Positions 1 to 58,720 of a stretch of DNA of 64,000 nucleotides are shown here, one piece after another (the stretch's first letter is position 1; the number at the start of each line of letters is the position of its first letter). The translations under genes were made by a program, and so were the position numbers. The DNA comes from Thermoanaerobaculia bacterium (GTDB lineage: Bacteria > Acidobacteriota > Thermoanaerobaculia > Multivoradales > Multivoraceae), in assembly GCA_963664405.1 (NCBI GenBank), contig OY761158.1, forward strand, positions 899,020 through 963,019, read 5' to 3'. The notes beneath the pieces were generated by a model that saw only the letters and a program-made list of their open reading frames with translations, was not told where the DNA came from and did no database searches.

Positions 1-2373
1 CCAGAAGAAACCGCCGAGGTTCAGCGAATGGTTGCCGAGCTGGAAGGTGCGGCTGGCGGAGAGGTTCAGCACGTGCTCGCGGTCGTCGCCGGTGCGGCCA
101 AAGTAGTTGATCGCGGTCAGCGGGATGCCGCTCACCGGATCGACGACCGTTTTGCCCTCGAGGAAGGGGTTGTCGTCGTCGTTGCGGCAGCACAGGTTGC
201 CTTCGGAACGGCCCAGGGTGTAGTTCGACCGGACCACCCAGTTGTTGCGAAAGCTCCGGTTGAGCTCGAGCTGCAGCCCCTGGTACTCGCGCTGGCCCTC
301 CGGGTAGTTGGCGACCAGCCGGAAGACGCTGCCGTCCGGGGCGAATTGGTCGTTCGGCCACATCAGGTCGTCATGGTCCCAGAAGATGCCCCGGGCCTTG
401 AACGCCCACAGGTCAGAGAACTGCCACTCTACGCCCAGGGTGACCTCGTCCTTGTAGTAGGGATTGATGTCGGTGATCAGGGTATCGAGCGCCGGTATCT
501 GCGTGCGCCGGAATATGTCGTACAGCCCGGTCGCAGAGTTCCACCCGAACTCGTTGTAGGCGTTGACGCCGTTGGGCTTTCGTGTGAACTCGTCGTTCAC
601 GACCTCCTGCGCGATGTGATGGTAGTAGCGGCCCACCGTCCCTTTGAAGAGGAGCCGTCCGTTGCCGCTGGCGTCGTAGACCGCCGCCAGCCGGGGGGCG
701 AGGTCGGTCGAGGAGGCCGCGACGTCCCCGATGTCATTCTTCTGCTCCTGGTCCTCCACCCGCAGACCCACCGTCATCGACCAGTGATCGCCCCAGGAGA
801 GACGGTCCTGGACGAAGAGGGCGATGGCGGTTGACTCGGTCTCGATGAGCCCCGCGGACGGCAGGTACACCCGCTTCCGCACGGGGACCTCGAACCCCCC
901 AGGTGCGTTGGCGTCGAAGTTCCTGCCCTGGTAGCGGTCGGGCACGTTGTTGAGCGTCTCCCAGTTCACCACCTGCCAGTCGGCTCCGAACTTGAGCTCG
1001 TGCACGCCGGCGAACAGGCTGAAGGCCGAGTTCGCCTGATTACGAGGATAATAGCGCTGACCGGTGCCGAGCGGACTGGCGATGGCCAGGCGCCGAAAGC
1101 CGGAGTTCAGGTCCCAGTAGGCGCCGACGTTCCCCGCCGTATCATCGGGGCTGGCATTCGGGTCGGCGGTCCTGGTCACGAGCTGGCTGCGGTCGAAGAC
1201 GGCCCTGTGTGCGGCGGCGCGGGTCTCGAGGAACATGTTGGAGCTCACGGTCCAGTTCCAGTTCGCCATCGCGAGCTCCTGGTCGACCTCCTGGTGCGGA
1301 ACCGAGAAGACATCGAAGCGGTTTGGGTTGGAAAGGCTGCGAAAGGTGTGGGGAGCGTTGATTCCCATGACGTAGAAGCTGTGACTCGAGCCGGGCTGGA
1401 AGTTCAGCTTCGCCAAGGCCACTTCGCCCTGGTTGCTACTGTCCACGGGGGTTTGGTCACCCGTGGCGGCGAGTACGTTTTCCGTGTCCTCGGAGTAGGA
1501 GACGAAGAACCACGCCTTGTCCCGCGCCATCGGTCCCCCGAGGGCGGTCTCGTAGCTGTTCTGGATCTCGTCGTTCCGGGGGAGCGGCACCGCGTCGTAC
1601 TCGGCGCGCCACTTCTGGCTCTGGGGGATGTAGCGGAAGTCGCCGTGGAAGCGGTTGGTGCCCGACTTCACCATCGCGTTGGCGATCCCTCCGGTGACCC
1701 TGCCGTACTCTGCGGTATACCCCGAGCCCTCGATCCGCACCTCGGATATGACGGTGGAGGGCAAAAACAGCTGGGAGCTGCCGCCGAGGCGGGAGAACGA
1801 AGTGTCGACGCCGTCGATGAAGCCGCCAAGATCCTGCCAGGATTGGCCGTTCACCCCCGCGCGGTGGTCGTACCAGTACTGGGATCGGGCGTTTTGATAC
1901 ACCCCCGGCATGGAGGTCAGCACCGACTGCCAGCTGCGCGAAGCGAAGGCGAGGGTTTCGGTGACCTCGGCCGCCATCGATGTCGTCGTCGAGACGTCGT
2001 ACTTGTTGACCAGCGGCACCTCGGAGACGACCTGAATGGTCTCGCCGGCGGTGGCGAGTCGCAGCGTGAGGTCGACGGTGCGGCGCTGGCCAGTCCCGAC
2101 CCGCAGCTCGGCCTCGGCCATCCCCAGGCCCTCGAGCTCCGCCGTCACGGTGTACGGCCCGGGTGCGAGAAGACCGAAGCGGTACTGCCCCTGGGCATCG
2201 GTCCTGGTGTCGTGGGAGCCTTGCTCGCTCCCGAGCGTCACGCTGGTGCCGGGGAGCGCCTCCCCGTCCGAGCTGGTGATCGTTCCCTGGATGGTCCCGG
2301 TCAGGGTGCCGTCGGCTAAGAGCGGAGGAGCAAGAAGAATCGAGATTCCGAGAGCTAACATCAATCTGTGCAT
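1..2373 (-). CDS. Outer-membrane protein with N-terminal carboxypeptidase-regulatory-like domain (TonB-dependent receptor-like), partial; the 3' end runs off the window
   Basis: Minus-strand translation from ATG at 2373 gives MHRLMLALGISILLAPPLLADGTLTGTIQG..., a signal peptide followed by a CarboxypepD_reg-like segment and long beta-barrel-like sequence. GGAG Shine-Dalgarno lies upstream. The stop is not in the window, so it is absent from the ORF track. The track ORFs 28..834 and 1000..2319 are its antisense shadows. Confidence 0.7.
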   Translation of the reverse strand, partial: MHRLMLALGISILLAPPLLADGTLTGTIQGTITSSDGEALPGTSVTLGSEQGSHDTRTDAQGQYRFGLLAPGPYTVTAELEGLGMAEAELRVGTGQRRTVDLTLRLATAGETIQVVSEVPLVNKYDVSTTTSMAAEVTETLAFASRSWQSVLTSMPGVYQNARSQYWYDHRAGVNGQSWQDLGGFIDGVDTSFSRLGGSSQLFLPSTVISEVRIEGSGYTAEYGRVTGGIANAMVKSGTNRFHGDFRYIPQSQKWRAEYDAVPLPRNDEIQNSYETALGGPMARDKAWFFVSYSEDTENVLAATGDQTPVDSSNQGEVALAKLNFQPGSSHSFYVMGINAPHTFRSLSNPNRFDVFSVPHQEVDQELAMANWNWTVSSNMFLETRAAAHRAVFDRSQLVTRTADPNASPDDTAGNVGAYWDLNSGFRRLAIASPLGTGQRYYPRNQANSAFSLFAGVHELKFGADWQVVNWETLNNVPDRYQGRNFDANAPGGFEVPVRKRVYLPSAGLIETESTAIALFVQDRLSWGDHWSMTVGLRVEDQEQKNDIGDVAASSTDLAPRLAAVYDASGNGRLLFKGTVGRYYHHIAQEVVNDEFTRKPNGVNAYNEFGWNSATGLYDIFRRTQIPALDTLITDINPYYKDEVTLGVEWQFSDLWAFKARGIFWDHDDLMWPNDQFAPDGSVFRLVANYPEGQREYQGLQLELNRSFRNNWVVRSNYTLGRSEGNLCCRNDDDNPFLEGKTVVDPVSGIPLTAINYFGRTGDDREHVLNLSASRTFQLGNHSLNLGGFFW

Positions 2374-2480
2374 AACCTTCTCCTGGGTTGGACCACTCGA
2401 AGGCAACCAGACTGCCATTCGACCCCTCCTCGAGTGGTCACTTTACGACGCAGGATAGCCTATCAGAGAATCCCGTCTCG

Positions 2481-2500
2481 TCTATGACGCCGGTCATAGA
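2481..2500. promoter_or_regulatory. Perfect 8-bp-arm palindrome tctatgac-gccg-gtcataga in the divergent intergenic region
   Basis: Read directly from the sequence. It sits between the start of the outer-membrane gene (2373, minus) and the recombinase start. It is a candidate operator. Confidence 0.25.
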
Positions 2501-2547
2501 AAGGCCGAGGACGGGCCGCTCTTTCCCTACCCTGCTCGCTCGCCTTT

Positions 2548-3283
2548 TTGGGTACCGCGAGTGCGCGGACAGGCCGAAGGCCAAGGCGGCCATGCGAAGG
2601 ACACCTAGTGCTCGTCGTTATCAGTCTCTATATCGCCAGCGCGATCTCGCAGTTCCTCGAGTGGTGTGAGAGCCGGAAGCTCGAGCTCCACACGCTCGAG
2701 CCCATCATCATCGCCGCCTACATCGAGGAGCTCGGTCAACGGCGATCGCCGACGACTGTGAAGCAAAACCTCGCAGCCATTCGGATGCTCATGGACTATC
2801 TCGTGGTGGGTCAAGTGCTTCCCTTCAATCCGGCCGCCGCGGTGCGTGGGCCGAAGCACGTCGTCAAGGTCGGCAAGACCCCCGTTCTCTTCGAGGACGA
2901 TGCACGGAAGCTCTTCGAAGCAATCGACGCGTCGCACGTTGTTGGTCTGCGCGATCGCGCAATGATCGGCGTGATGATTTACTCCTTTGCTCGTGTCGGG
3001 GCCGTGGTGGCCATGCGCGTGAAGGACTACTACACCCAAGGACACCGAGCCTGGTTCGTGCTCCACGAAAAAGGTGGCCGCCATCATCGTGTGCCGGCAC
3101 ACCACAAGGCCGTCGAGTATCTCGATGCCTATGTTGAGGCCGCAGGTATCGCGAAGGAAGGTTCCTCGAAGCTCTTCCGTACCGCCCGCGGGAAAACGCG
3201 AGAGCTGACCGATCGAGGGATGACCCAAAGCGACGCGCTCCGCATGACGAAGCGTCGGGCCAAGCGGAACCTGTCAAGAACTT
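2548..3283 (+). pseudogene. Tyrosine recombinase/phage-type integrase, N-terminal and central portion, interrupted by an IS3-family insertion
   Basis: The translation has an N-terminal SAM-like core-binding region and the start of the catalytic domain (ARVGAVVAMRVKDY...HRVPAH). The usual C-terminal HxxR...Y segment is missing here and reappears after the IS at 4915..5128 in another frame. Confidence 0.8.
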
Positions 3284-3304
3284 TGAGACACCTTGAGTCA
3301 TAAA

Positions 3305-4309
3305 TTAGTGAAGGTCCTCTTCGGTCGAGGCCGGCGGATCCTCAGGCCGGTTGATATAAACGGTTCCAGGTAAAGGCGCGACGATGGGTCGCCCTCGGAG
3401 GAAGCGTTCTGGGTGAGTTTGGAAGGCGCCATCGAGCGCGACTTGCCGTGCGGCAAGGACCTGCTCCGCTCGACCGTGGTGGACGCCGTGCGGCGTCAGG
3501 TGGGCGATCCCACCGTGGCGGTGCTCGGTGTTGTACCAAGGGAAGAAGGTCCTGCAGAAAGCCTGGGCGGCCTCCTGGCTGGCGAATCGGGAGGGGAAGC
3601 TCGGGTGGTACTTGAGGGTCTTGAACTGGGCCTCGGAAAAGGGGTTGTCGTCACAGACCTGGGGCCGGCTGAGCGACTGAGTGAGTCCCAGATCGGCGAG
3701 CAGCTGAGCCGTGCACTTGGCGGTCATCGGGGAGCCCCGATCGCTGTGCAGGGTGAGCACCTCAGGTTTGACGTCGTGCTTGCAGCAGGTCTCCTCGATG
3801 AGGCGACCGGCGAGATTGGCGTTCTCGCGGGGCGCGAGCATCCAGCCGACGACGTAGCGGCTGAAGATGTCGAGCAGGACGTAGAGGTAGTAGTAGCTCC
3901 ACTTCTCAGGACCCCGCAATCGGGTGATATCCCAGGACCAGACTTGGTTGGGGGCGGCCGCCACCAGCTCCGGCTTGGTGTAGTCGGGGTGGCGAAGCTG
4001 GTTACGCCGTTCGCGCACCGGCGCTCGCGCAGCGAGGATGCGGTACATGGTCCTCTCCGAGCAGAGGTAGCGTTGCTCGTCCAGGAGCGTGGCGACGACC
4101 TCGGCGGGGGCACGGTCGACAAAGCGAGGCGAGTCCAGGACGCCCAGGACGGCTTGGCGCTCGTCCTCGCTCAGAGCCCGGGCAGGTGTTGGCCGGGGCT
4201 GCGGCCCGGTAGATGGCTTCCGACGACGGTACAGGGTCGCCCGTGCCACGCCGAGAGCGACACAGGACGGCTTGACGCCGACCTGCAGCGCCAATTCGGC
4301 TGCGGCCAT
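3305..4309 (-). CDS. IS3-family transposase OrfB (DDE integrase core domain)
   Basis: 334 aa with WSWDITRL...HSDRGSPMTAK...YNTEHRH..., the typical rve/DDE domain of IS3 OrfB. Its start overlaps the OrfA stop (TGATG). Confidence 0.9.
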   Translation of the reverse strand: MAAAELALQVGVKPSCVALGVARATLYRRRKPSTGPQPRPTPARALSEDERQAVLGVLDSPRFVDRAPAEVVATLLDEQRYLCSERTMYRILAARAPVRERRNQLRHPDYTKPELVAAAPNQVWSWDITRLRGPEKWSYYYLYVLLDIFSRYVVGWMLAPRENANLAGRLIEETCCKHDVKPEVLTLHSDRGSPMTAKCTAQLLADLGLTQSLSRPQVCDDNPFSEAQFKTLKYHPSFPSRFASQEAAQAFCRTFFPWYNTEHRHGGIAHLTPHGVHHGRAEQVLAARQVALDGAFQTHPERFLRGRPIVAPLPGTVYINRPEDPPASTEEDLH

Positions 4310-4863
4310 CAGGAGCTCCTCCCGTCCTCGAGGTTGAAGCCCAGCAGCCCGGCAACTTTTCCCTGCACTTCGAGGATCAGCTCTGCCTTGCGCAGCGCCT
4401 CGCGAGTACGGGATAGCTCCTTTTCCAGTTGCTCGACCTTCTTGGCCAGCGGATTGCCGGACTTCGCCTTGCGCCCTCGCCTTCGGCCCAGCCTTCGCAG
4501 AGCGCCGGTCCTGCGTGCCCTGCGCCAGGCCGTCAGGTGGGAGCTGTACAATCCCTCGCGACGCAGGATCGCGCCGATGTCGCCAGGCGTGGCCACTTCG
4601 ACTTCCTCGAGGATTCGCAGCTTGTACTCGGCCGTGAAGGTTCGCCGCGTTGGCTTGGCGACCACCTCAGGATCCAACACAGGGCTCGGCCGCGCCCAGA
4701 TGGCGCCCGCTGCTGCGTCTCCGTGCTCGCTACGCTCGCCCGTCGGCGCCTCCGCGGACCCCAGCTGGGCGCACGGGGGAAGCTGGGAAACCTCCTCCTC
4801 GCCCCGGACCGCAATGGACGTGCCTGCTGATCTCATCTCTTGCATCTTCCTCTCTTCAGACAT
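4309..4863 (-). CDS. IS3-family transposase OrfA (HTH plus leucine zipper)
   Basis: 184 aa with a basic coiled-coil C-terminus (KKVEQLEKELSRTREALRKAELILEVQ), typical of IS3 OrfA. OrfB starts in the -1 frame at its stop codon. Confidence 0.85.
   Translation of the reverse strand: MSEERKMQEMRSAGTSIAVRGEEEVSQLPPCAQLGSAEAPTGERSEHGDAAAGAIWARPSPVLDPEVVAKPTRRTFTAEYKLRILEEVEVATPGDIGAILRREGLYSSHLTAWRRARRTGALRRLGRRRGRKAKSGNPLAKKVEQLEKELSRTREALRKAELILEVQGKVAGLLGFNLEDGRSS
4347..4353 (-). other. Candidate -1 programmed ribosomal frameshift heptamer GGGAAAA (X XXY YYZ) near the end of IS3 orfA
   Basis: On the minus strand the orfA codons read cag gga aaa gtt. A -1 slip reads through into MAAAEL..., the OrfB start, giving an OrfAB fusion. 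Confidence 0.45.
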
Positions 4864-4914
4864 CAGGTTTCACCTCTCCGCCCTACTCTATTTAAGGGGT
4901 GGCGAGATGTCTCA

Positions 4915-5128
4915 AGCATCTTGGCAGAGAGGGAAGAGCGCAGGCTTGCCAACGTCGATCGGCAACCATACCTTTCGGGCGACGGGCATTACTGACTATC
5001 TCGCCAACGGCGGGACGTTGGAAACCGCCGCCCAGATCGCTGGCCACGCCTCAACGCGAACGACCCAGCTCTACAACCGCAATCCCGAACGCATCTCGCT
5101 CGCTGAAATCGAGCGCATCCGGATCTGA
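4915..5128 (+). pseudogene. Tyrosine recombinase C-terminal fragment (HxxR...Y catalytic tail) displaced by the IS3 insertion
   Basis: It is the tail of track ORF 3413..5128: ...NHTFRATGITDYLANGGTLETAAQIAGHASTRTTQLYNRN.... This is the canonical H-x-x-R ... catalytic Tyr box of tyrosine recombinases. Its frame differs from the N-terminal part at 2548..3283. Confidence 0.8.
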
Positions 5129-5136
5129 GAGGACGT

Positions 5137-5180
5137 GTCAGACTACCTCCAGGCCCGCCAACGAAACCCTACCCTTAGCG
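5137..5180 (+). repeat. 44-bp direct repeat copy A (att-like) immediately 3' of the recombinase
   Basis: gtcagactacctccaggcccgccaacgaaaccctacccttagcgg matches 6161-6205 with 2-3 mismatches. Confidence 0.7.
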
Positions 5181-5280
5181 GAACTCTCCCTAGGGATTGC
5201 TTGACTCTCCTTATAGGAGGCCGAAGCCGGCACCAATAGAGGTGAGGGCGGGACGCCCCCCAGAGGAGCAGTGAAATCGC

Positions 5281-6237
5281 ATGACAGACAATCGGCCCGA
5301 ACAGAGGGAGGGACGACCCTTTCACCACGGCGAGTCCCTACCCACGCAACTGACGGAAGAGACCCGTCGCGAGTTTTTCTGGAAGCTCTTTCTCGAGGCC
5401 GCTGAGCGATGTGTGCCCAAGTTCTTCGAGACATACACAACGGCAGTGATAGATCGAACGGAACCGCATAAGGCCCCGTTCGATTTTGAGTTTGCCGGGG
5501 CGATGTACATAAAAAGCGAGGGTGCCAACACGATAGTCGACCAGAAGGTGGTCGACGAGTACAAGTCTGCCCGGTCCCTTTCCGCAGAAGGGCTGATCAA
5601 GGGATGGCTCACCGAGTGGCGGATACAGCTCCGCCCCGAAGTGGAGGACGAGGTTCTGTCACTCTTCGTGAACCCTATCGTTCTCCCACCCCGGGTTCAG
5701 ACGTGGACCGACGTGACACAGGGGTGGACGAACGGCATCTGCAAGAAATATATTGATGACCAAAACGCCATAGTGGGCCATATGTGGTCGAACGGAGACG
5801 TGTGGTGGGCCGAAGACGAGAAGCAAGCACCGTTCCGCCCGTACAATCCCCTCAGAGTTACGCGCGAGGACTGGCTGGATCATGCACGAAAGTACTGCGA
5901 CCTCGTTGAGGCTGCCGCCCGCTGGTGGGGCAGTAGCGATACTTCGATGGGCTCTCGCCGAGAGCGTCATCTTGGTGGCGATCGGCTGACAGCCGAGCGG
6001 GACACAGCATGGTTGGTGCGACGTCTGCTTCTCGGGGAGTCGCCAGATCGGATCGCCAGGGTCTACGACGACGAGCTTGAGAAGGCGGGGGTGGATGATG
6101 ACGTTCAGCCGAAGGGCCGTATGGTGACGAAAGCCCTTCGGCGGACGGCCAAAACAATGGGAGTCAGACTTCCTCCGGGCCCGCCAACGAAACCCTACCC
6201 TTACCACTCCTTAGCCCTCCAAAGAGAAGAGGGGTGA
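5281..6237 (+). CDS. Hypothetical protein, 318 aa; low-GC cargo gene between the att-like direct repeats
   Basis: Long ORF with ATG start. Its composition is visibly AT-richer than the flanks. I recognised no conserved domain. Its 3' end is encoded by direct-repeat copy B. Confidence 0.6.
   Translation: MTDNRPEQREGRPFHHGESLPTQLTEETRREFFWKLFLEAAERCVPKFFETYTTAVIDRTEPHKAPFDFEFAGAMYIKSEGANTIVDQKVVDEYKSARSLSAEGLIKGWLTEWRIQLRPEVEDEVLSLFVNPIVLPPRVQTWTDVTQGWTNGICKKYIDDQNAIVGHMWSNGDVWWAEDEKQAPFRPYNPLRVTREDWLDHARKYCDLVEAAARWWGSSDTSMGSRRERHLGGDRLTAERDTAWLVRRLLLGESPDRIARVYDDELEKAGVDDDVQPKGRMVTKALRRTAKTMGVRLPPGPPTKPYPYHSLALQREEG
6161..6205 (+). repeat. 44-bp direct repeat copy B (att-like)
   Basis: gtcagacttcctccgggcccgccaacgaaaccctacccttaccac is the second copy of the 5137-5180 repeat. 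It overlaps the 3' end of the cargo CDS. Confidence 0.7.
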
Positions 6238-6243
6238 CGGCCG

Positions 6244-6363
6244 ATGCTAATTGAGATCCTGGGTCTCGCTATCGCTGCCGTTGGTGCGGCCGCCGCTGTG
6301 TATGCCGCATGGCGTACGCGAGACAAGGTGGAACCCACCGAGCATGATCAGAGTACTCAGTAA
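6244..6363 (+). CDS. Small 39-aa single-pass membrane peptide (MLIEILGLAIAAVGAAAAVYAAWRTRDKVEPTEHDQSTQ); candidate type I-toxin-like or holin-like peptide
   Basis: Not in the ORF track because it is under 60 aa. ATG lies 7-9 nt after a GAGGGG Shine-Dalgarno and is translationally coupled to the stop of 5281..6237. It has a hydrophobic helix followed by a charged tail. Confidence 0.35.
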   Translation: MLIEILGLAIAAVGAAAAVYAAWRTRDKVEPTEHDQSTQ

Positions 6364-6520
6364 ACAAGGAAACCCCCCGGCCTGCCTGTATGGACAGAGG
6401 GGCTCTCTCTTTGTATTCGTCCGCGATGCCGCGCCAGGAAAAGCCGAGAGTTCCTCTCTGTGACCCTTGAGCTGCGGTAGCAAGTGTCTCGTCATTCTGG
6501 CCGTCCGCCTATCCCCCCAC

Positions 6521-6548
6521 TTGACGAACTCTCGCGACCCGGTAGTAT
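6521..6548 (+). promoter_or_regulatory. Near-consensus sigma70-type promoter (TTGACG, 16-nt spacer, TAGTAT) upstream of the RHH antitoxin gene
   Basis: cacTTGACGaactctcgcgacccggTAGTATgg sits about 30 nt upstream of the ATG at 6579. Confidence 0.4.
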
Positions 6549-6578
6549 GGAGTCATACCAGCTAACACAATAGGTTCT

Positions 6579-6848
6579 ATGGAAATGGCTCACAAAAAAC
6601 TCTCCATCTCGCTACCCCCTGATCTCTATGAGCAGGCCGAGGCCGTGCGGAAGGCCGAGCACCGTACACGCTCAGAGCTCGTCCGAGAAGCGCTGCGCTC
6701 CTACATAGAGCGCTCCCGTCGCATTCCCGTGGTCGAACCCACCAGCCAAGAGGCGCGCATGTTCAAGGACGGCTGGAAGGCTTACAAGGCCAACGAGTAC
6801 GTGACACTCGAAGAGCTTCACAATGAGATGGCAGGTAGTCACAAATAG
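6579..6848 (+). CDS. Ribbon-helix-helix (CopG/ParD-like) antitoxin
   Basis: 89 aa. An N-terminal beta-strand then two helices (SISLPPDLYEQAEAVRKAEHRTRSELVREALRSYIE) is the classic RHH fold. It overlaps the downstream toxin gene by 26 nt. Confidence 0.8.
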   Translation: MEMAHKKLSISLPPDLYEQAEAVRKAEHRTRSELVREALRSYIERSRRIPVVEPTSQEARMFKDGWKAYKANEYVTLEELHNEMAGSHK

Positions 6849-7095
6849 GGCCGCCGTCAGAGACATCCGACGCCTCCCTACCCGAGCCCGCACCCGGATT
6901 CTTGAGGCCATCTCCGACATGGCCATCGATCCTTTCAGTGGAGACGTCGTTCGACTCAAGGGGCGCTCACCGCGTCTCGAATTTCGCCGTCGGGTTGGGT
7001 CGTGGCGCATCCTCTTCGGCGTCGACTACGATCAGACGACGGTCGTCGTCTTCAGAGTAGCTCGTCGCACAACACGCACCTACAAGAAATCATGA
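6823..7095 (+). CDS. RelE/ParE-family type II toxin
   Basis: 90 aa; ...RLKGRSPRLEFRRRVGSWRILFGVDYDQTTVVVFRVARR... matches the RelE/ParE core. Its stop overlaps the parA start (ATGA). Confidence 0.8.
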   Translation: MRWQVVTNRAAVRDIRRLPTRARTRILEAISDMAIDPFSGDVVRLKGRSPRLEFRRRVGSWRILFGVDYDQTTVVVFRVARRTTRTYKKS

Positions 7096-7589
7096 CCACC
7101 ACCCTCGCCATCGTGAACCAAAAAGGAGGTGTCGGAAAGACGACGAGTACGATCAACCTCGCCTATGCCCTCGCTCAGCAGGGCAAGCGCGTTTTGATGG
7201 TGGACACTGACCCGCAAGCGAGCCTGACGAAGTACGCAGGCTATGAGCCCGACGAGCTCGAGCTCGCCGGCACGACGCTCTATCACGGCCTCACGACGCG
7301 GAAGGCGCTACGGAAGCTCATCCTCAAGAACGAGAGCGTGGACCCACATCTTCTGGCTGCAAGCAAGAACCATCACCATGACATTGGTGCTGCCGCCAAA
7401 AAGCGCGGCAACATCATGCTCCGCGATGCCCTGGCCAAGATCAAAGACGACTACGACTTTGTCCTCATTGACTCACCGCCCTGGCTCGGTAAGGTAACAG
7501 GACCAGCGGGGCCATTTGAACGAAAACCTACCGGTTTCGGTGCCGGTCCGACAGTCAGAGCCGTAGGATTCGGTAGGAGAATCACCTAA
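7092..7589 (+). pseudogene. parA: ParA/Soj-family partition ATPase, C-terminally truncated; the tail is encoded by the Tn3 inverted repeat
   Basis: MTTTLAIVNQKGGVGKTTSTINLAYALA... shows Walker A and continues through DYDFVLIDSPPWLG. The reading frame then runs into the Tn3-family IR (7508..7545) and ends after 27 unrelated residues. About 110 C-terminal residues of a normal ParA are absent. Confidence 0.75.
7508..7545 (+). repeat. Tn3-family terminal inverted repeat (left)
   Basis: See the mobile_element entry. The outer GGGG is at 7508. Confidence 0.75.
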
Positions 7590-9379
7590 TTGTCGCCCTC
7601 GATGAAGTACGTGCCGTTGGGCATGACGTGCTTGAACGGTAGCAGCGAGATGTGCGACAGATCCTCGTCGTCGATCGCCTCGCCCTCGGCTCGAAGCCGG
7701 TCGACGATCTCGCCGATCCGGACCGTGTTCCAGTACAGGATCGCGTTTGAGACGAGGCTCAGACAACTCGCCTTGTTCATGATCTCGACGTAGTCGCCGG
7801 TCGTGAACTCGCCTTGGTCGGCGAAGAAGATCCAGCGCGACAGCTTCTGTCGGTACTCTCCCTTGTTGAGCTGCTTCTGGACCGTCCGGCGCAGCTCTCG
7901 ATCGGTGAAGTATCGAAGGACGTAGTTCGTCTTCACCATGCGGCCGAGGCTGCGGACCGCCTTCGACAACCGATCGTGAGGAGACCCGCTAGTGAGGCGC
8001 TGTACGACCACGTTCGCTGGAGCCGTCCTCAGTTTGAGAGACCACGCGACCCGCATCATTGGATCCCACTGCTCCTCGATCAAGTCGAGGTCAACCGTCT
8101 TCCTCAGTAGAGGAGCGAACGCTCCTTCAGCCGAGGACCTCGATGGTCGATAGAGTTGCTGGCTCTTGAGGTTCTTGATCCGCGGCATGAAGTAGTACCC
8201 AGCAGGTAGCACAGAGCGAAGACGATCTCGGTGTAGCCATCCGTGTCGGTTGTATGTTCTCGGAGCCGGAGAATCGTGTTGTTATCGAGGAGACCGTCCA
8301 GGACGTAGAGCGCCTCCCGAGGACCACACGAGATCGCTCGCGTGCTGAAGACCGCGAACTGGTCGGAAACGTGCGTGTACAGGCTGATCCCTTTGTCGTA
8401 GTACCCGAAGTATCGGGGGTAGTACGACGCGAGGAGGCTGGCCGCACGGATCTTGAACCGCTGACCATCAGATGACGACGTCTGGCCATCGCCGTGGATG
8501 GCGCTCAGCGGTAGAGCGTGGTGAGCGTTGACGATGGCCGCGTTTGCATCATTCAGAGTCTCCTCCCGGATGTAGTAGTGGAGAACGTAGCGGAGCATGT
8601 CCAGAGTGACGCCGGTAACACTCGCGCTCATGGAAACGACGCCGAGGTTCGTTGCCTGGGAGATGATCGCTGCTAGCAGCGATTTGTAGAACTCCTCCGG
8701 CCTCGAGCGGTGTTGTTGTACCGGCAGGAAGCTCTGAGTAAAGCGGGTCGATCGATCGACATCCATGAGGAGCTGCTCGACCCGAACCAGCGGCAAGCTG
8801 GCGTTGATCATCTTCTGCAGTCGGCTCTCCGGCGGCTTCTTCTTGTCGTCTCGACGGAGCTTCAGCCTTCCTTGGTCGACCCGAGCGAATCGGTCCTGGC
8901 CATATCGACTGCCGGCTCGCCGGTTCCCGTCCTGAAACTCGTCGACAAGTCTCGGCCGCACCTCGGTAGGTTGGGGCTGCTCGAGGTCGGCAAATGAATC
9001 CGCCTTCGAATCCTCCCACCGATCGTCCGAGAGAAGGAGGTCCCAGAACGCAACGTGCTGTTTGCTCTCGGGGATGAATAGGTCCCCCGAGCGAAACGCG
9101 TCCCGGAGCGCCAGAGCCAGTCCGGTTTCCCAAGCGTTGCGATTGAGTGAGCCCGGCTCTTCTCCGGGAAGCACCGAGCGCAGGTCGCTCGCGACGAAGC
9201 CAGTCGGCGCGTCCGCGGGAAGGCTCTTGAGGGAGTCGCTCGAGTTCGTTCCCGGTCAACGACCAATCTCGGACAAGCTCGTCATCGGAAAGGCGCTCGG
9301 GTAGTGCAACCGCGTGGCGTCGCTGGCGGCCCGAGAGAAAGCGTTCCGGAGGAGGACGGTTTTCACTGATGCCGATCAC
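7586..9379 (-). pseudogene. tnpA: Tn3-family transposase TnpA remnant in three frames (9379-9260 N-terminus, 9174-8104 DDE region, 8212-7586 C-terminus); about 400 internal residues deleted
   Basis: Track ORFs 8549..9379, 8104..9174 and 7586..8212 hold, in order: the TnpA N-terminal motif (LSDDELVRDWSLT), the central DDE region (SSDGQRFKIRA...YFGYYDKGISLYTHVSDQFAVF...YVLDGLL...EHTTDTDGYTEIVFALCYLLG), and the C-terminal region (QLNKGEYRQKLSRWIFFADQGEF...LYWNTV...LSHISLLPFKHV). Total length is about 600 aa versus about 1000 for an intact TnpA. Confidence 0.8.
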
Positions 9380-9608
9380 CCCCTGGATTGTTCAGAGCAG
9401 TCCTCGTTCGTGGCGCCTCATGAGAGCGGTGACCGGGACGCGTAGTGCCTGATACTCAGGAGCCAGAGGGCTCGGGTGCGGTTTCAAGGTCGGACTACAC
9501 TAGCCCAACACGCTCTTCGTGAAGCTAGATAACGAACACGATAGGCGAAGAACGCGGAACCGTACCAAGGGCTGGGCAACTGGGACCGACCAACTGGCCA
9601 CTACCTCC

Positions 9609-9646
9609 GAGCGACCGGAACCGTAAGTTTTCGTTCAAATGCCCCC
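9609..9646 (-). repeat. Tn3-family terminal inverted repeat (right)
   Basis: Reverse complement of 9609-9646 matches IR-L at about 85%. Confidence 0.75.
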
Positions 9647-9653
9647 GCAGATC

Positions 9654-9815
9654 CATCCTGCGGAAGATCAGTATCACTTCCTCCGGATGCGGAATATGGC
9701 GCCGAGGACGGCGCATCCTGCGGAAGTGATCGGTATCACTTCCTTCGGATGCGGAATATGGCGCCGAGGACGGCGCACTTGGGCGTTGCTTCCTATCCGC
9801 TCCGGGGAACGGCAC
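9654..9815 (+). repeat. Tandem 62-64-bp repeat units; each unit holds a palindrome (GAAGTGAT-CGGT-ATCACTTC) plus the GC hairpin GGCGCCGAGGACGGCGC; member of a dispersed repeat family
   Basis: Two tandem copies of catcctgcggaag(tg)atc(g)gtatcacttcc(t)tcggatgcggaatatggcgccgaggacggcg, then cacttgggcgttgcttcctatccgctccggggaacgg. The same modules recur at 21016-21062 and 58281-58720. Confidence 0.6.
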
Positions 9816-9957
9816 AGGCAGAACCGAGCCGCGGCACCCCGTCCCCGGTTTCGTTTCCTGCCGCGCACTCCTCTAGCCGCCACTAGCTCAAGCGCTCAGA
9901 AACAAACTGCCCCGCTTCGACGTCAGAAGGGAAAGTCGAAAATCGAGGAGGAAGAAC

Positions 9958-10332
9958 ATGCATCGACCAACAACGCTGTGGTTCCTGGCTTTCGTAGTCG
10001 TCTCATTGGTGGGCCTTCCCGCCGCGGCCGGCGAGGGGGTTCTGGGAAAATGGGAGGCCGCCATCGAGACGCAGAGGGGTAGCAACGAGATCGTGATGGA
10101 GTTCAAGGGATCAGACGAAGAGCTCCAGGGAACGTGGACTGACGGACGTGGCGCCGCAGATCTCGACGACTTGAAGTACGCCGACGGCAAGCTCAGCTTC
10201 AAACGCGCTGTCGAGTTCCAGGGCAACTCCTTCACTCTCGGCTATGCGGCCACGGTCGACGGCGACACGATGAATGTCACGATGACAACGCCCCAAGGAG
10301 AGAGGGAGTTCACCGCCAAGCGCGCCAACTAA
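9958..10332 (+). CDS. Small secreted protein of unknown function (signal peptide plus beta-rich domain)
   Basis: Strong Shine-Dalgarno (ggaggaagaacATG). N-terminal hydrophobic signal LWFLAFVVVSLVGLPAAAG. Confidence 0.6.
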   Translation: MHRPTTLWFLAFVVVSLVGLPAAAGEGVLGKWEAAIETQRGSNEIVMEFKGSDEELQGTWTDGRGAADLDDLKYADGKLSFKRAVEFQGNSFTLGYAATVDGDTMNVTMTTPQGEREFTAKRAN

Positions 10333-17994: not shown

Positions 17995-19299
17995 CTAGCG
18001 TAGATTCTCCATCGCATCCACCGCAACGTTCGCCAGGGCGCGCACACCGAGACTGAGCGCCCCTTCGTCGGCAAAGAAGTGGGGCGAATGGTTACGGGCG
18101 ACAGTGGCCGGATCGGCACCCTCGGGAGCGACGCCGAGGAAGAAAAAGACTCCTGGGATCTCCTGTTGGTAGTGCGAAAAGTCCTCAGCGGTGGTGGTCG
18201 GGTCGACCACCTGCGCCTTGCCCTTCCCAGCCACTCGCACCAGCGTCGGAGCGATCATACTGGTCAGCTCGGGATCGTTATAGGTGACCAGATTGCCCCC
18301 ACCGAAGCGAATCTCCGCGGTAGCTCCCGCGCTCGCCGCGATCGACTCCGCAGTACGCCGGATCCGACGGTGCAATTCCAAGCGCACTTCCGGATCGAAG
18401 GTCCGCACTGTGCCAACCATCTCCACCTTATCGGGGATGATGTTGCCCCGCACACCTCCATGGATACTCCCTATGGTGATGATCGAGGGTGTCCGGGTCA
18501 CGTCGACTTGACGACTGACGATACTCTGTAAGCCCAAGATAACTTGGGAGGAAACGACGATGGGATCCACCCCTCCCCAAGGCACGGCGCCATGGGTCTG
18601 CCGACCGTGAATAGTGATGTACAGAGAGTCGCTCGAAGCCATGATGCCGCCGCTCCTGTAGCCGAGGGTGCCCAGGGGATAGGGGAAGACGTGGAGGCCG
18701 AAGATCGCTTCGGGCCGCGGATCCTCGAGAGCGCCCTCGGCGATCATCAAACGGGCCCCTCCCTTCTCTCCCCGCGGCGCCCCTTCCTCGGCGGGCTGAA
18801 ACAGAAACTTCACCGAGCCTCTCAAATGCTCGCGAAGGCCGCTCAGAACCTCTGCAACCCCCATCAAGATCGCCAGGTGCTGGTCGTGCCCGCAGGCGTG
18901 CATGACCCCGACCTCACGGCCCTCGTACATGGTTGTCTGGGTCGAGGCGAACGGCAGATCCACGAGCTCCGTTACCGGTAAGGCATCCATATCGGCACGC
19001 AGCGCGATCACCGGACCTTCCTCGCCGCCGCGAAGCAGCCCCACCACACCGGTGTGAGCGACCTCGGTGCGCACTTCAAGCCCCAGGGCCTCGAGATGCT
19101 CCGCGACTTTGCGCGCGGTGCGGACCTCACGATTGCTGAGCTCCGGATGGCGATGAAAGTCTCGACGCCACAAAACGACCTTCGCTTCGATCTCGGCCGT
19201 CAAACGGTCTATCTCACTTGCGAGGTCGGCGGCTCCGACCGGCAGAGCAGCCAGGCAAAGAGCGGCAACTAGACCAGCGTTTCCAAAGTTCGCGCACAT
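17995..19299 (-). CDS. M20-family amidohydrolase (peptidase M20D, hippurate hydrolase-like); the annotated start codon and first about 10 codons lie inside a MITE
   Basis: ...RRDFHRHPELSNRE...LRADMDALPV...HACGHD... are M20D signatures. The only in-frame ATG upstream of the signal peptide (LVAALCLAALPVGAA) is MCANFGNAGL, encoded by the MITE terminal repeat. Confidence 0.75.
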   Translation of the reverse strand: MCANFGNAGLVAALCLAALPVGAADLASEIDRLTAEIEAKVVLWRRDFHRHPELSNREVRTARKVAEHLEALGLEVRTEVAHTGVVGLLRGGEEGPVIALRADMDALPVTELVDLPFASTQTTMYEGREVGVMHACGHDQHLAILMGVAEVLSGLREHLRGSVKFLFQPAEEGAPRGEKGGARLMIAEGALEDPRPEAIFGLHVFPYPLGTLGYRSGGIMASSDSLYITIHGRQTHGAVPWGGVDPIVVSSQVILGLQSIVSRQVDVTRTPSIITIGSIHGGVRGNIIPDKVEMVGTVRTFDPEVRLELHRRIRRTAESIAASAGATAEIRFGGGNLVTYNDPELTSMIAPTLVRVAGKGKAQVVDPTTTAEDFSHYQQEIPGVFFFLGVAPEGADPATVARNHSPHFFADEGALSLGVRALANVAVDAMENLR

Positions 19300-19434
19300 A
19301 TCTCGGGCCCTTCTGCCCGCTGGCGTCGTTACGCCTCCTCGACATATTGCCCAATATGCCTGCGTCAGCGCGCCTAGCCAGCGAACAGAATGACCTCGAG
19401 CTATGCAGCACGAACTTTGGAAACGCTGGTCTAG
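19269..19434. mobile_element. MITE copy a (166 bp) with about 24-bp terminal inverted repeats CTAGACCAGCGTTTCCAAAGTTCG...CGAACTTTGGAAACGCTGGTCTAG
   Basis: About 90% identical to the copies at 46999-47163 and 48683-48846. It is perfectly bounded by CTAG and lies between the glpK stop and the M20 start. Confidence 0.75.
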
Positions 19435-19464
19435 TGCCCAGGCGTACTTTCTCAGAGCCGGCAT

Positions 19465-20961: not shown

Positions 20962-21015
20962 CGACTTCTCAGCTTAACAGCCTAGAGAACTGACGAGCTA
21001 GGCTGCCGAACAGGG

Positions 21016-21062
21016 TGCCGAGGACGGCGCGCTCTGCCGAAGTGATGGGCATCATAGGGACC
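21016..21062 (+). repeat. Third-locus copy of the hairpin-plus-palindrome repeat family, upstream of the Gfo/Idh/MocA gene
   Basis: ggtgccgaggacggcgcgctctgccgaagtgatgggcatcatagg parallels ggcgccgaggacggcgcatcctgcggaagtgatcggtatcac at 9700-9745. Confidence 0.45.
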
Positions 21063-21097
21063 GGGTCTAGGGTCACTGCTAACATCGCCCTCCTCGC

Positions 21098-46168: not shown

Positions 46169-47002
46169 ATGGCGGTATTCAACGCGCTCGTAAGGCGCCT
46201 CATCGACGCCCTCTTGGGGCCGTTCCAAAACTACCCGGCGATGGTGACTCTGCTGCCGATCTCGGTGGTGGTCACCGTTGCCGCGCTGTTGGTGCTCAAG
46301 CGAACCTCGAACCAGGAGGCTCTCAACCGCGTCAAGGCGAAGACGCACGCCGGCATCTTCGAGATCAGGCTCTTCAACGACGATCTGAGGGCCATCTTCT
46401 CGGCCCAACGGAACATCTTGGTTCAGGTAGCAAAGCAGATCGGCCTGACCCTAGTGCCCCTGCTGTGGATGCTAGTGCCGATGGCCGTCCTCCTCCCTCA
46501 GCTCCAATTCCAGTACGGCTACCTTGGCATCGAGCCCGGCGAGCCGGTGCTCCTCATCGCCACCCTCGACGCACCGCTGGGAGCCGACGAGACGAAGCCG
46601 GTCTTTCACCTCGAGACCCCCACCGGCGTTCGCGCGGAGACGGGGCCAATCTGGGTGCCCGCCAAGAACGAGCTGGTGTGGCGCCTGGTGGCGGATGAGC
46701 GCGGCAGCTTTGAGCTCTTGATCGTCGATGGCGGGGGAGGTAAGTCGGTCACCAAGAGCCTGGAGGTCTCGGACCAGATCCGAAGGCGCTCGCCGAAGAG
46801 GGTTACCGGCTTCTGGTCCCAAATCGCCTACCCCGCCGAGTCCCCGCTGCCGCCCGGTGCGCCTTTTCGGGAGATCTCCCTCGCCTACCGAGACGCAGAA
46901 GTCAGCTTTTTCGGCTGGGAGACCAACTGGATGATCGCCTTCCTCCTGCTCACCCTCGTCTTCGCCTTTGCCCTACGCGGGCCCCTTGGCGTCACCTTCT
47001 AG
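46169..47002 (+). CDS. Hypothetical membrane protein; its stop codon TAG is the terminal CTAG of a MITE
   Basis: 277 aa with several hydrophobic segments. It starts 12 nt after the small RHH-like gene. Confidence 0.55.
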   Translation: MAVFNALVRRLIDALLGPFQNYPAMVTLLPISVVVTVAALLVLKRTSNQEALNRVKAKTHAGIFEIRLFNDDLRAIFSAQRNILVQVAKQIGLTLVPLLWMLVPMAVLLPQLQFQYGYLGIEPGEPVLLIATLDAPLGADETKPVFHLETPTGVRAETGPIWVPAKNELVWRLVADERGSFELLIVDGGGGKSVTKSLEVSDQIRRRSPKRVTGFWSQIAYPAESPLPPGAPFREISLAYRDAEVSFFGWETNWMIAFLLLTLVFAFALRGPLGVTF

Positions 47003-47163: not shown

Positions 47164-47216
47164 CCAGACGGCCGAGGCGGCCAGAGAGCGATCGCTCGTA
47201 GGAGACGCGCTCGCCC

Positions 47217-56812: not shown

Positions 56813-58279
56813 ATGAGCTCGGTAACGCCCTTCCTCCCCGCTCTGCTACTCCTCGCTGGGTGCCGGGGTCCAGATCCTTCTCGCCGTGACTCTCGTCGAG
56901 CAACCTTCCCCGCACTGACGGTCGCCGAGGCTCCAACAACGGCGAGGACCCCGGAGGGTCAGTACATCTCGTGGAAGGAGCACCGCATCGACGATCAAGA
57001 CCTGAACGGCGGCATCGAGCTGCGCGGCGGTGACGGCCTCCAGATGGCCGACCTCGATCGCGACGGTCACCAGGACATCGTCTCGGTCCACGAAGACAAC
57101 TACCACATTCGTCTCGCCTTCGGCACCGACGATCCGGACCGGTGGGAGCTCGCGACCTTGGCGGAAGGCGAGGAGGCGAACGCCGCCGAAGACGTCTCGA
57201 TCGCGGACGCCAATGGCGACGGCTGGCTGGACATCGTCGCCGCGACCGAGCTGGCGCACCTGATCTACTTCCAGAACCCCGCAGACCCCACCGAGACACG
57301 CAGTGGCGCATGGCCGCGCACGATCCCGCCGGGCACACGAGACCGAGGCTCCTGGATCCGGGTCTTCTTTGGCGACTTCGACGGCGACGGCAGGCCGGAA
57401 GTCTCGGGTCCGAACAAAGGCGACCAACTTCCCGCCGAAAAAGAAGGACCGGCCGAGTTCGCACCCAAAGAGATCTCCTGGTTCGAGCTACCCGGGGACC
57501 CTCTTGCCGGCGATCTGTGGGAAGAGCACGTGCTGGTGCGGATCAAGATCCCGATGAACGCTCGACCTGTAGACCTCGATCGCGACGGCGACCTCGACAT
57601 TCTCGGTGGCAGCCGCTTCGAGATGCGCCCCTTCTGGTTCGAGAATGTCGGAGGGTCGCCGACCGACTTCGAGCTTCACCCGATCGACGTAAGCGGTCGC
57701 AACCAGGCGCAGCCGGAGATCTTCGGCGGCAAGTGGCTGACAGCGATGAACGTCGTCATCGAAGACCTCAACGACGACGGCCGGCTCGACATCATCCTCC
57801 AGGAGACGCCCTTCATAGTCAGCTGGATGGAGCAGCCTCCAAGCTTCAACCAGCCCTGGCAGCTACACAAGATCGGCGACTTGAGCCCCGACACGTCGAC
57901 CGGTCTTACCTTGGTCGACATCGACGGCGACGGGCGCAAGGATCTATTCACCGGCGGCTACAGCCAGAACCCTCGCGATCATGACGGTGAGGACATCACC
58001 ACGAACAGCCAGACCGGACGCCTTGCATGGTGGAAGCAGCCGGCGGACCCGAGCGCCGAGTGGACCCTGCACAACGTCAGCCGTCGCAAGCGCGGCATGT
58101 ACGACCAGTTCGTCGCCCGCGACATGGATGGTGACGGAGACGTCGACTTCGTCACCACGCGAGGCAACAGCGGGACTTACGACGGCGTACTCTGGCTCGA
58201 GCAGGTCCGCACTGCCGAGCAGACCCGGTCGTTCCTGCCGGCCCGCGAGAAGGAGAGCGCCCACCTCCCCCTGCCCTAG
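56813..58279 (+). CDS. FG-GAP/VCBS-repeat (integrin-alpha-like beta-propeller) lipoprotein
   Basis: Lipobox LLLLAGCRG. Repeated D-x-D/N-GDG Ca-binding-like loops (ADLDRDGHQD, ADANGDGWLD, FDGDGRPE, DLDRDGDLD, LNDDGRLD, DIDGDGRKD, DMDGDGDVD). Confidence 0.75.
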   Translation: MSSVTPFLPALLLLAGCRGPDPSRRDSRRATFPALTVAEAPTTARTPEGQYISWKEHRIDDQDLNGGIELRGGDGLQMADLDRDGHQDIVSVHEDNYHIRLAFGTDDPDRWELATLAEGEEANAAEDVSIADANGDGWLDIVAATELAHLIYFQNPADPTETRSGAWPRTIPPGTRDRGSWIRVFFGDFDGDGRPEVSGPNKGDQLPAEKEGPAEFAPKEISWFELPGDPLAGDLWEEHVLVRIKIPMNARPVDLDRDGDLDILGGSRFEMRPFWFENVGGSPTDFELHPIDVSGRNQAQPEIFGGKWLTAMNVVIEDLNDDGRLDIILQETPFIVSWMEQPPSFNQPWQLHKIGDLSPDTSTGLTLVDIDGDGRKDLFTGGYSQNPRDHDGEDITTNSQTGRLAWWKQPADPSAEWTLHNVSRRKRGMYDQFVARDMDGDGDVDFVTTRGNSGTYDGVLWLEQVRTAEQTRSFLPAREKESAHLPLP

Positions 58280-58280
58280 C

Positions 58281-58720
58281 CGGGGAAAATGATGGATATC
58301 ATTTCCCCCGACTAGTTGTTCTTTGGCGCCGAGGACGGCGCACTCAGGCGGTGCTTCCTATTCGCTCCGGGCAGCGGTCCGGTTTCCTTCCGCGCAGACT
58401 CCTCTAGGAAGCCTGGACCACAGGAGCTACGGGTGCGCCGTCCTCGGCGTCCTTCCCGAGAGCGGCTCCGCAGGAGCCGGTCGAGTTGACCGCCGTGGAG
58501 CTCGCGCCAGCGAGGTCACAAGAACAACAATGAGCCGGAGGAAATGATAGCCATCATTTCTGGAGGCGAAGCCCGAACGCTAGGAGAGTGTCCGAGTATT
58601 CGGCCAGAGCCGTTTCCCGGAGCGAGTAGGAAGCAACGCCCTAGTGCGCCGTCCTCGGCGCCAACAACAATGAGCCGGAGGAAATGATAGCCATCATTTC
58701 TGGAGGCGAAGCCCGAACAC
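58281..58720. repeat. Dense composite repeat array: three AAATGAT-N4-ATCATTT palindromes (58286-58307, 58541-58560, 58685-58704); a 55-bp inverted-repeat pair built on GGCGCCGAGGACGGCGCAC (58324-58380 versus 58605-58662); and a 57-bp direct repeat (58519-58576 and 58663-58720) that duplicates the last codons of the PQQ-ADH gene
   Basis: Read directly from the sequence. The modules match those at 9654-9815 and 21016-21062. The region lies between the convergent 3' ends of 56813..58279 and 58694..60358. Confidence 0.7.

Follow-up and report, generated by a model that had tools for sequence, protein, structure and literature searches.

A CTAG-jointed mosaic hairpin repeat that differs between near-identical strains of a Thermoanaerobaculia bacterium

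The stretch analysed here, 64 kb of the Thermoanaerobaculia contig OY761158.1 (hereafter the window), carries a dispersed composite repeat at three loci that together measure 852 bp. Locus A lies between tandem genes and abuts the remnant of a Tn3-family transposon, locus B separates the divergent genes of an FGGY kinase and a Gfo/Idh/MocA protein, and locus C occupies the spacer between the convergent genes of an FG-GAP protein and a PQQ dehydrogenase. The building blocks are a palindrome (P), a T-rich linker, a GC hairpin (H1), a box called M3 and a tail. On balance, we favor reading the family as a lineage-restricted, non-coding, non-autonomous and unstable mosaic repeat, akin as a class to repetitive extragenic palindromes (REPs) and bacterial interspersed mosaic elements (BIMEs). 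By this analogy it would be a functional counterpart of such elements, not a REP in the strict sense.

Motif searches of the window place the three modules far above chance. The H1 motif GGCGCCGAGGACGGCGC, with up to two mismatches allowed, gave 7 matches where 0.21 are expected; six belong to the family (plus strand at 9698, 9760, 21014 with one mismatch, and 58325; minus strand at 58435 with one mismatch, and 58646), while the seventh, at 28165 with two mismatches, is probably a chance match. The palindrome GAARTGAT-N4-ATCAYTTC was found 4 times against 0.05 expected (9723, 58286, 58541 and 58681), and the downstream box GGGCGTTGCTTCCTAYYCGCTCCGGG 3 times against 0.00 expected (plus strand at 9781 and 58346, minus strand at 58616). 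Tandem Repeats Finder (TRF) reports a 62-nt unit in 2.0 copies at 9654–9777, and nhmmer profiles of the separate modules found no further copies in the window. A sequence-only reading of this DNA had described a dispersed composite repeat at three loci, with tandem units at 9654–9815 abutting a Tn3 inverted repeat (its arm is 9623–9654) and with three palindromes and three hairpins at locus C, two of them inverted; all of this is borne out by the counts. The copy that it placed at locus B is likewise present (about 20982–21070), although as a decayed P–H1–P remnant and not as an intact unit, and the G+C content of the window, which it had put at 67%, measures 62.7%.

The anatomy of the unit was obtained by aligning the window copies with copies from elsewhere, which are cited here by L numbers. 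A unit spans about 135 nt in the order CTAG, P, CTAG, linker, H1, M3 and a tail that ends in CTAG (Table 1), so that the earlier composition was right in its modules and about 60 nt short in extent, stopping before the ...CTCCT(CT)AG tail. P occurs as two sequence variants, P1 and P2, around an invariant core GAAATGAT-N4-ATCATTTC, the P2 form reading GAAGTGAT...ATCACTTC. The linker is TTGYYTTTT in P1-type units and TCCGGATGCGGAATAT in P2 units, H1 is the 17-nt GGCGCCGAGGACGGCGC (GCGCCG-AGGA-CGGCGC), and the M3 consensus is ACnnnGGCGnTGCTTCCTAYYCGCTCCGGGrAACGG. Tails come in two variants, T1 (...CGAATACTCGGACACGCTCCTAG) and T2 (...CCGGTTTCnTTTCC..CCGCGCAnACTCCTCTAG). Two further modules are optional: X (CTAG-GCGCGCCCCGS), seen in L016 and L100, separates P from the linker, and Y, found only in L073, consists of a 12- to 14-bp GC hairpin followed by CCCATCCCCnCCTGAGAAC..., with the same T motif at its end. 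Modules P, X, H1, M3, T1/T2 and Y are found in varied combinations, in the manner of a BIME-type mosaic.

Table 1. Repeat units and remnants in the window, with positions numbered from its first nucleotide
Feature	Position	Strand	Content
Locus A, unit A1	9654..9712	+	Damaged P2-type palindrome (GGAAGATCAGTATCACTTCC; left arm with a 2-nt deletion), linker TCCGGATGCGGAATAT, start of H1 (H1 = 9698–9714)
Locus A, unit A2	9713..9777	+	P2 hairpin 9713–9752 (GCATCC..GGAAGTGAT CGGT ATCACTTCC..GGATGC), linker, H1 9760–9776
Locus A, M3 and tail2	9778..9876	+	M3 ACTTGGGCGTTGCTTCCTATCCGCTCCGGGGAACGG; tail2 end ..CCGCGCACTCCTCTAG, CTAG at 9873; kept in L098, and in L104 from 9787 on
Locus B, remnant	20982..21070	+	CTAG-bounded and decayed: P remnant, CTAG, linker, H1 21014–21030 (GGTGCC.., 1 mismatch), half-degenerate P 21039–21058
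Locus C, unit C1, full	58276..58407	+	P 58276–58315 from CTAG to CTAG, linker TTGTTCTTT, H1 58325–58341, M3 58342–58377, tail2 CTAG 58404–58407
Locus C, unit C2, rearranged	58431..58568	-	P core 58541–58560, 70-nt unrelated insert, H1' 58435–58451 (GACGCC.., 1 mismatch), truncated M3
Locus C, unit C3, full	58576..58712	-	P core 58681–58700, linker CTCATTGTTGTT, H1 58646–58662, M3 58599–58645, tail1 ..ACTCGGACACTCTCCTAG (CTAG 58580)

Modules are concatenated head-to-tail, and the usual joint between them is CTAG. This tetranucleotide is avoided in the window (57 occurrences against 117–218 expected), and 10 of the 57 fall inside the 852 bp of the three loci. Both sides of P carry it in 7 of 9 P1 copies, and it likewise borders X and the unit as a whole; at the feet of P2 copies GCATCC/GGATGC is found in its place. 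The truncated M3 of unit C2 meets unit C1 at a common CTAG. Arrays run head-to-tail with a period of 62 nt at locus A and of 76 nt at a further locus, D, on the sister-strain contig L104, and orientations are mixed at locus C alone. The full unit has no terminal inverted repeats, its left end being GCCTCCAGAAATG and the reverse complement of its right end GGAGCGTGTCCGAG.

P is a hairpin. For a covariation test, 11 distinct copies were set symmetrically around the loop and compared with 500 shuffles on five measures, and as a further control the pairing partner was slid by 1–3 columns. Standard pairs make up 82.8% of cells, both sides have changed in 10 of the 18 pairs, none of the 500 shuffles reached any of the five measures, and the slid controls were 31–46% paired. 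The top of the stem is invariant, whereas the lower stem is variable yet complementary (CGCAG/CTGCG, CCGGGG/CCCCGA, CTTTCG/CGAGAG, CATCC/GGATG), and the commonest subfamily carries a fixed 4x4 internal loop. Folded as single-stranded DNA, the variants reach -9 to -21 kcal/mol, with z-scores of -4.7 to -11. The palindrome had been drawn with 8-bp arms; the actual stem has up to 18 pairs, including a CTAG at each foot. P is thus a short (20–40 nt) imperfect palindrome with a stem-loop, as in REPs.

H1, which like P forms a stable hairpin as a single strand, has the same sequence, down to the loop, in 13 of the 17 copies. It folds into a 6-bp stem with an AGGA tetraloop; the GC hairpin of the earlier reading is therefore real, while its drawing as a self-complementary GGCGCC element has been replaced. 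Among the variants, two turn a pair into G-U on the sense strand of the unit and two break the stem, so that they do not discriminate between RNA and DNA. M3 is conserved as sequence and not as structure. A conserved fold of M3 and the tail was considered and rejected: RNAalifold gave different structures on two alignments, with zero compensatory pairs, so that the fold depends on the alignment. Strand asymmetry in folding, taken as a sign of RNA, was not found either, as both strands of whole units fold about equally and the reverse strand often folds better. Searches against Rfam gave no match at gathering score in the window, only noise at E>=1.9 over loci A and C at a permissive threshold, and nothing usable for L073; no Rfam family fits, in line with the earlier remark that there was no obvious match to a known element. 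A promoter scan over the loci found no promoter-like site. A consensus scan for intrinsic terminators called neither P nor H1 (the T-rich linker follows P1 and not P2), and its few terminator-like matches, two on the plus strand in C1 (58340–58382) and one on the minus strand at 9960–9976, lie off P and H1 and are near the shuffle expectation.

Two sister-strain contigs, L102 and L104, which were reached via members of the PQQ-dehydrogenase cluster and are 95–98% identical to the window, differ from it at almost every locus. The two sister assemblies are ENA ERZ28763718 and ERZ25074053. At locus C, the spacer between the convergent genes measures 414 nt in the window and 75 nt in L102, where it holds P-linker-H1 only. 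Units C1 and C2 are absent from L102, and of C3 only P-linker-H1 (58645–58712) is common to both, with 85% identity against 95–98% around it; homology breaks at the 3' edge of H1. Locus D is the converse case. In L104, P-CTAG-linker-H1 starts right at the CACTAG stop of an AICARFT gene and is followed further on by a 76-nt P2-H1 unit in 2.3 copies, upstream of a VWA gene, whereas the window has neither array nor unit there and a single CTAG at the AICARFT stop. The empty site thus has one CTAG and the filled site reads CTAG-P-CTAG, though the flanking sequence differs too.

Locus A varies in the same way. In the metagenome contig L098, which carries the orthologue of this locus at 91% identity, a single P1 unit follows a co-oriented DUF6116 gene; in the window, two P2 units stand by the Tn3 remnant, and homology to L098 starts exactly at the 5' edge of the H1 of unit A2. 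L104 has no P or H1 at this locus, and its homology to the window begins inside M3; in place of P-H1 and the first bases of M3, it has about 570 nt of strain-specific, apparently non-coding sequence (3440–4010) upstream of a 124-aa gene. Locus B is present in both strains and decaying in both, the spacer being 84% identical against 97–98% for the flanking genes; L104 keeps a recognizable extra P remnant there, and its H1 is mutated. Where homology between copies breaks off, the break lies at an edge of H1 or at a CTAG. Between strains this close, units have been gained, lost, amplified in tandem and recombined, and old copies decay. That strains 95–98% identical differ at almost every locus indicates unstable, proliferating repeat DNA and not conserved regulatory sites.

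A separate case of rearrangement was seen at L101 905–1000 and L016 6640–6760, which are orthologous sites from two datasets. A deletion in L101 fuses M3 to the 3' end of a convergent open reading frame (ORF), an end that matches a PQQ-like fragment of L016 for which Pfam gave no family; the fused ORF runs about 90 nt into the repeat.

All copies of the family are extragenic or overlap last codons only. The convergent setting of locus C recurs at L016, L073, L097, L100 and L101 and the tandem setting of locus A (shared with L098) recurs at locus D, while locus B is the only copy between divergent genes; the genes next to copies are functionally unrelated. TAG stop codons lie at the ends of elements in the FG-GAP gene (58277–58279, within the first CTAG of C1), on both sides of L016, at L097, L100 and locus D of L104, and on one side of L073. 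Of the stops that abut the element, 7 of 9 are TAG; since TAG already makes up 38–40% of stops in the lineage (binomial p about 0.03), this preference is weak evidence. A co-orientation of units with the upstream gene was dropped as an argument, being automatic for convergent pairs, with two tandem contexts remaining.

The repeat has also altered the end of a protein. The PQQ dehydrogenase gene of the window runs three codons into P and stops at a TGA (58694–58696) within GAAATGAT, so that the protein ends in ...FGLRLQK, while the ancestral end ...GAC TAG (...FALRD-TAG) is still found in L107 and L108. In L102 (11640–11674, equivalent to window 58694–58730) the same gene has an extra 9-nt duplication, GCCTCCAGA, and encodes 557 aa against 554 aa.

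Beyond the window, a genome collection with one genome per species was scanned with the 19-mer H1+AC, and metagenomes with a more specific 28-nt pattern. The 19-mer gave mostly chance matches in actinobacteria; among the matches listed, the real units are L016 and L073, both on one 1.6-Mb contig of an Acidobacteriota metagenome-assembled genome (CAXWPL01). Their units are 88–91% identical to those of the window, while the only alignable coding stretch, which may be a paralogue, is 64% identical. The 28-nt pattern was found on five metagenome contigs, L098 among them, all from a single sample. No family match was obtained in the plasmid collection, and none among viral contigs except L109, a chance H1 match with no other module nearby. 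The motifs are therefore not confined to the three sites of the window, as the sequence-only reading had allowed they might be; the family occurs in other genomes, albeit in a narrow, lineage-restricted range. Within 108 kb of the species, its density is about one locus per 10–20 kb (3 loci in the 64-kb window, 4 in 44 kb of sister-strain sequence). A six-frame translation of the consensus unit had no matches in a protein database, which argues against a conserved peptide in the unit. A literature search with the H1 sequence returned no paper containing it, and we could not find this form of repeat described, though its class is familiar.

In L073, the tail of a unit has served as the target of an insertion sequence (IS). 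The element (4032–2594, minus strand; 1,439 bp) is of IS1111 type and encodes an IS110-family recombinase (PF01548, PF02371). Its left and right ends measure 9 nt and 313 nt, and its subterminal inverted repeats, GGACTCCC/GGGAGTCC, are 8 bp long. It lies within the Y-T module at CTCGGA^CACGCTCCTAG (target CTCGGA^CACGCTCC), 150 nt from an intact second Y-T copy. In the right end, of which 306 nt were searched, a small hairpin separates CTAGGAGCGT, which is complementary to the right target flank, from TTCTCGGAC, which matches the left flank; these segments look like the target loop of a bridge RNA, and the element had no Rfam match. REPs are known homing targets of IS110-family elements (PMC11208160, PMC12288879), and this one insertion at L073 has the features described for IS110/IS1111 insertion into target repeats (PMC11208160). 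The position of the IS, exactly in the T motif, shows that this motif can be reused as a target and is presumably present in many copies in that genome, which fits the REP analogy. As a side observation, the circle junction inferred for the IS, ..GTCCAGATA|TGATGAAATGG.. (L073 2594–2600 joined to 4019–4032), agrees with the left arm of P, CTCCAGAAATGATGG (e.g. window 58663–58712), at 12 of 15 positions, a post hoc comparison that may be coincidence.

Other mobile DNA shares the region. A second, unrelated repeat is a CTAG-ended, 165-nt palindromic miniature inverted-repeat transposable element (MITE) with terminal inverted repeats of about 37 bp (CTAGACCAGCGTTTCCAAAGTTCGCGC...), found in the window at 19268–19435, 46999–47164 and 48683–48847 and in L102 at 2873–3039, 8829–8997 and 20684–20794. 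It is polymorphic, being present at L102 8829–8997 and not at window 61364/5, and at window 19268–19435 and not at L104 around 13665. Its insertion site appears to be CTA, and a DDE_Tnp_1 gene that abuts the partial L102 copy is probably its parent IS; the ends of both differ from those of the family described here.

Beside locus A, positions 1–9650 form a strain-specific patch of mobile DNA, the sequence upstream in the sister strain being unrelated. The patch holds a partial phage-integrase gene (2548–3303), an IS3-family pair on the minus strand (orfA 4309–4863, orfB 3305–4309), a 41-nt direct repeat whose copies are 1,026 nt apart (5137–5177 and 6163–6203), a ParA fragment and the Tn3 remnant. 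The latter (7500–9654) comprises two frameshifted DDE_Tnp_Tn3 fragments on the minus strand (7586–8212 and 8104–9174) between inverted-repeat arms of 32 nt (7500–7531 and 9623–9654), with GGGG/CCCC ends at 7508 and 9645; it lacks a target duplication, as its 5-bp flanks differ (CCAGC versus CGCAG), and it truncates a ParA-like gene (7002–7589). Since no Tn3 element is found at locus A in the sister strain or L098, the Tn3 inverted repeat that had been linked to the repeat is an incidental neighbor.

Among described systems, the closest comparison is with REPs, which are palindromes tagged with GTAG or CGTC that are associated with RAYT (REP-associated tyrosine) transposases and whose GTAG termini also supply TAG stops to flanking ORFs (Di Nocera et al. 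2013, PMC3733652); that paper makes no mention of CTAG. The family resembles REPs in being a short extragenic imperfect palindrome with a conserved foot tetranucleotide and a lower stem that is variable but paired, and also in donating TAG stops, in varying between strains and in being targeted by an IS110-family element. It differs in that its tag is CTAG and stands on both feet, that P always comes with an invariant GC hairpin and usually with a non-palindromic box, that its sequence is not similar to described REPs, and that no RAYT was found in the ORFs scanned. Because the tag is CTAG and not GTAG or CGTC, we do not file the family as a REP.

BIMEs of enterobacteria (Gilson, Bachellier) and the rhizobial intergenic mosaic elements called RIMEs (Osteras et al.) are reportedly of a comparable mosaic kind. 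Similarities include the combination of a palindrome with other motifs, strain-variable tandem arrays, and a location after genes or between convergent genes. Successive palindromic units of BIMEs point in alternating directions and have IHF, gyrase and Pol I as protein partners; in contrast, the arrays of this family run head-to-tail with 62- and 76-nt periods, and its modules are joined at CTAG. Bacterial MITEs with TA or CTAG targets include the Correia elements and IS630-derived MITEs. With these the family shares non-coding units of about 100–150 nt, CTAG/TA boundaries, gene-end insertion that alters C-termini, and presence or absence between strains, but no parent IS was found in any locus fetched, its modular shuffling is atypical of MITEs, and the absence of terminal inverted repeats from the unit sets it apart from a classical MITE. 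The mycobacterial interspersed repetitive units (MIRUs) of Supply et al. 1997 are said to lie inside operons, to contain small ORFs for translational coupling and not to be hairpin-based; here too there are tandem intergenic units of 50–100 nt, in strain-variable number and with ends overlapping stop codons, whereas reading frames in the family are not conserved between copies.

These comparisons are consistent with the favored reading of a mosaic, REP/BIME-like repeat, which also corresponds to the best fit among the options raised from sequence alone ('REP/BIME-like element or non-autonomous transposon'). New copies would be inserted at CTAG, often the C-TAG of a stop codon, by a trans-acting enzyme that recognizes the P hairpin. 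By analogy alone, this enzyme may be a HUH/RAYT-like single-strand nuclease, with a DDE transposase duplicating a CTAG or TA target as the alternative. Slippage or recombination at H1, an identical 17-nt stretch, could then generate arrays and mosaics. Any effect on the host would most likely be that of a generic REP-type hairpin in a 3' untranslated region (3'-UTR), which may block exonucleases or weakly terminate transcription between convergent genes, and not sequence-specific regulation. We hold the family to be a functional REP/BIME analogue with stronger confidence than any identity of its enzyme, of which we are much less sure.

Several points weigh against this interpretation. A RAYT had been suggested as something to look for; the search covered those ORFs of the window that were scanned with Pfam, a part of the total, and the genes called on the sister contigs, and it brought up no Y1/RAYT or matching transposase. 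The tag differs from those of described REP superfamilies, and the full unit lacks terminal inverted repeats. At every polymorphic site other sequence has been replaced as well, so that no clean pair of empty and filled sites marks the ends. The metagenome scan gave only 5 matches, and there are no copies in L107 and L108, two 21-kb regions of more distant relatives around PQQ-dehydrogenase homologues 75–79% identical to that of the window. That H1, with its loop, and the M3 core stay invariant from genome to genome speaks for a sequence-specific recognition of some kind, beyond what this reading covers, and homology may break at H1 for no other reason than that no other stretch is identical.

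The same evidence can be set against other explanations. An ordinary MITE, or nested mini-MITEs moved by a DDE transposase of IS630/Tc1 or IS5 type that duplicates CTAG or TA, with P as a minimal inverted-repeat pair, would account for the CTAG flanks of P (7 of 9 P1 copies), X and the whole unit, and for the one CTAG at the empty site of locus D against two at the filled site. The same genome also holds an active 165-nt MITE with ends CTAGACCAGCG..., inserting at CTA, and a DDE_Tnp_1 gene by a partial copy. We consider this explanation unlikely, given a full unit without terminal inverted repeats, P2 copies that have GCATCC/GGATGC and not CTAG, ends unlike the inverted repeats of the resident MITE, and no cognate IS in any locus fetched; moreover, P between its CTAGs is about 30–34 nt long, and its lower stem varies while paired, unlike a transposase-binding end. 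Quite unlikely, in our estimate, is a structured RNA acting in transcripts, be it a 3'-UTR stabilizer or terminator or a protein sponge with the AGGA loop of H1 serving as a CsrA-type GGA hairpin. Three predicted consensus hairpins, units that begin at stop codons, the T-rich TTGYYTTTT after P in P1-type units, two H1 variants with a C-G to U-G change on the '+' sense of the unit, and an H1 loop more invariant than a mere hairpin needs would all suit such a role. Against it stand the two other H1 variants, which break the stem, P2 units without a T-tract, strands that fold equally well or better in reverse, an M3 without covariation whose fold shifts with the alignment, the lack of Rfam matches even at E<=10 and of any scored promoter or canonical terminator, and the presence, absence and decay of copies between strains 95–98% identical; co-orientation with the upstream gene carries no weight for convergent pairs. 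The earlier suggestion of a family of small RNA or regulatory sites is, for the same reasons, not supported.

The sequence-only reading took P for a dimeric protein-binding site rather than a terminator; P would then be the operator of a dimeric DNA-binding regulator with the half-site GAARTGAT. The 8-bp core arms do show a single change, a symmetric replacement of A-T by G-C, and are otherwise invariant, the spacer of 4 nt varies freely, and locus B lies in a divergent promoter region. We regard an operator as very improbable, however: the 8-bp core only caps a stem that reaches 18 bp, with compensatory pairing well past the core, copies are mostly found behind stop codons or between convergent genes and not at promoters, the adjoining genes are functionally unrelated, and arrays come and go between strains while the adjacent genes remain unchanged. 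At locus B, where the sole promoter-region copy lies, one arm of P is ruined and both strains show decay. The operator and the structured RNA alike are disfavored by turnover between strains, by the decay of locus B, by an M3 without covariation and by the 3' location of copies. Also very improbable, if marginally more so, is that the units are by-products or partners of RNA-guided IS110/IS1111 recombination, whether as landing pads or as donor-like mimics. The element in the tail motif of L073, with guide-like right-end segments that match both flanks, points that way, as do breakpoints at fixed short sequences, which suit site-specific recombination, and the likeness of the circle junction (TCCAGATATGATGA) to the left arm of P (TCCAGAAATGATGG). 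That likeness is post hoc, however, one such insertion was seen in all, the window and the sister strain having none, and neither a recombinase gene nor a region like the right end of the IS is present in the units; the known use of pre-existing repeats as targets is the simpler reading.

In a bolder version of the favored mosaic-repeat reading, which we offer as a doubtful possibility, P would represent a third, CTAG-tagged class of REP-like hairpins in Acidobacteriota, served by an enzyme of its own, HUH or otherwise specific to hairpins, and H1 would be a dedicated recombination or protein-binding site that drives module shuffling, the whole amounting to a self-contained mobile system of hairpin and crossover site that doubles as a programmed landing pad for RNA-guided IS1111 elements.

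No general concept is changed by the family, which is a new instance, with a new tag and a new architecture, of a known class. Dispersed hairpin repeats have been well studied in proteobacteria and hardly in Acidobacteriota, and the present one offers a compact test case: near-identical strains differ at almost every locus, so that, after a scan of complete genomes, comparative genomics alone could reveal its target, its ends and its enzyme. For annotation, the units matter in that they create spurious ORFs, change C-termini and mark hot spots of rearrangement, such as the junction with the Tn3/IS3/integrase island at locus A. Finally, an IS1111 element aimed at the tail motif provides a natural and checkable guide–target pair for the biology of bridge RNAs.

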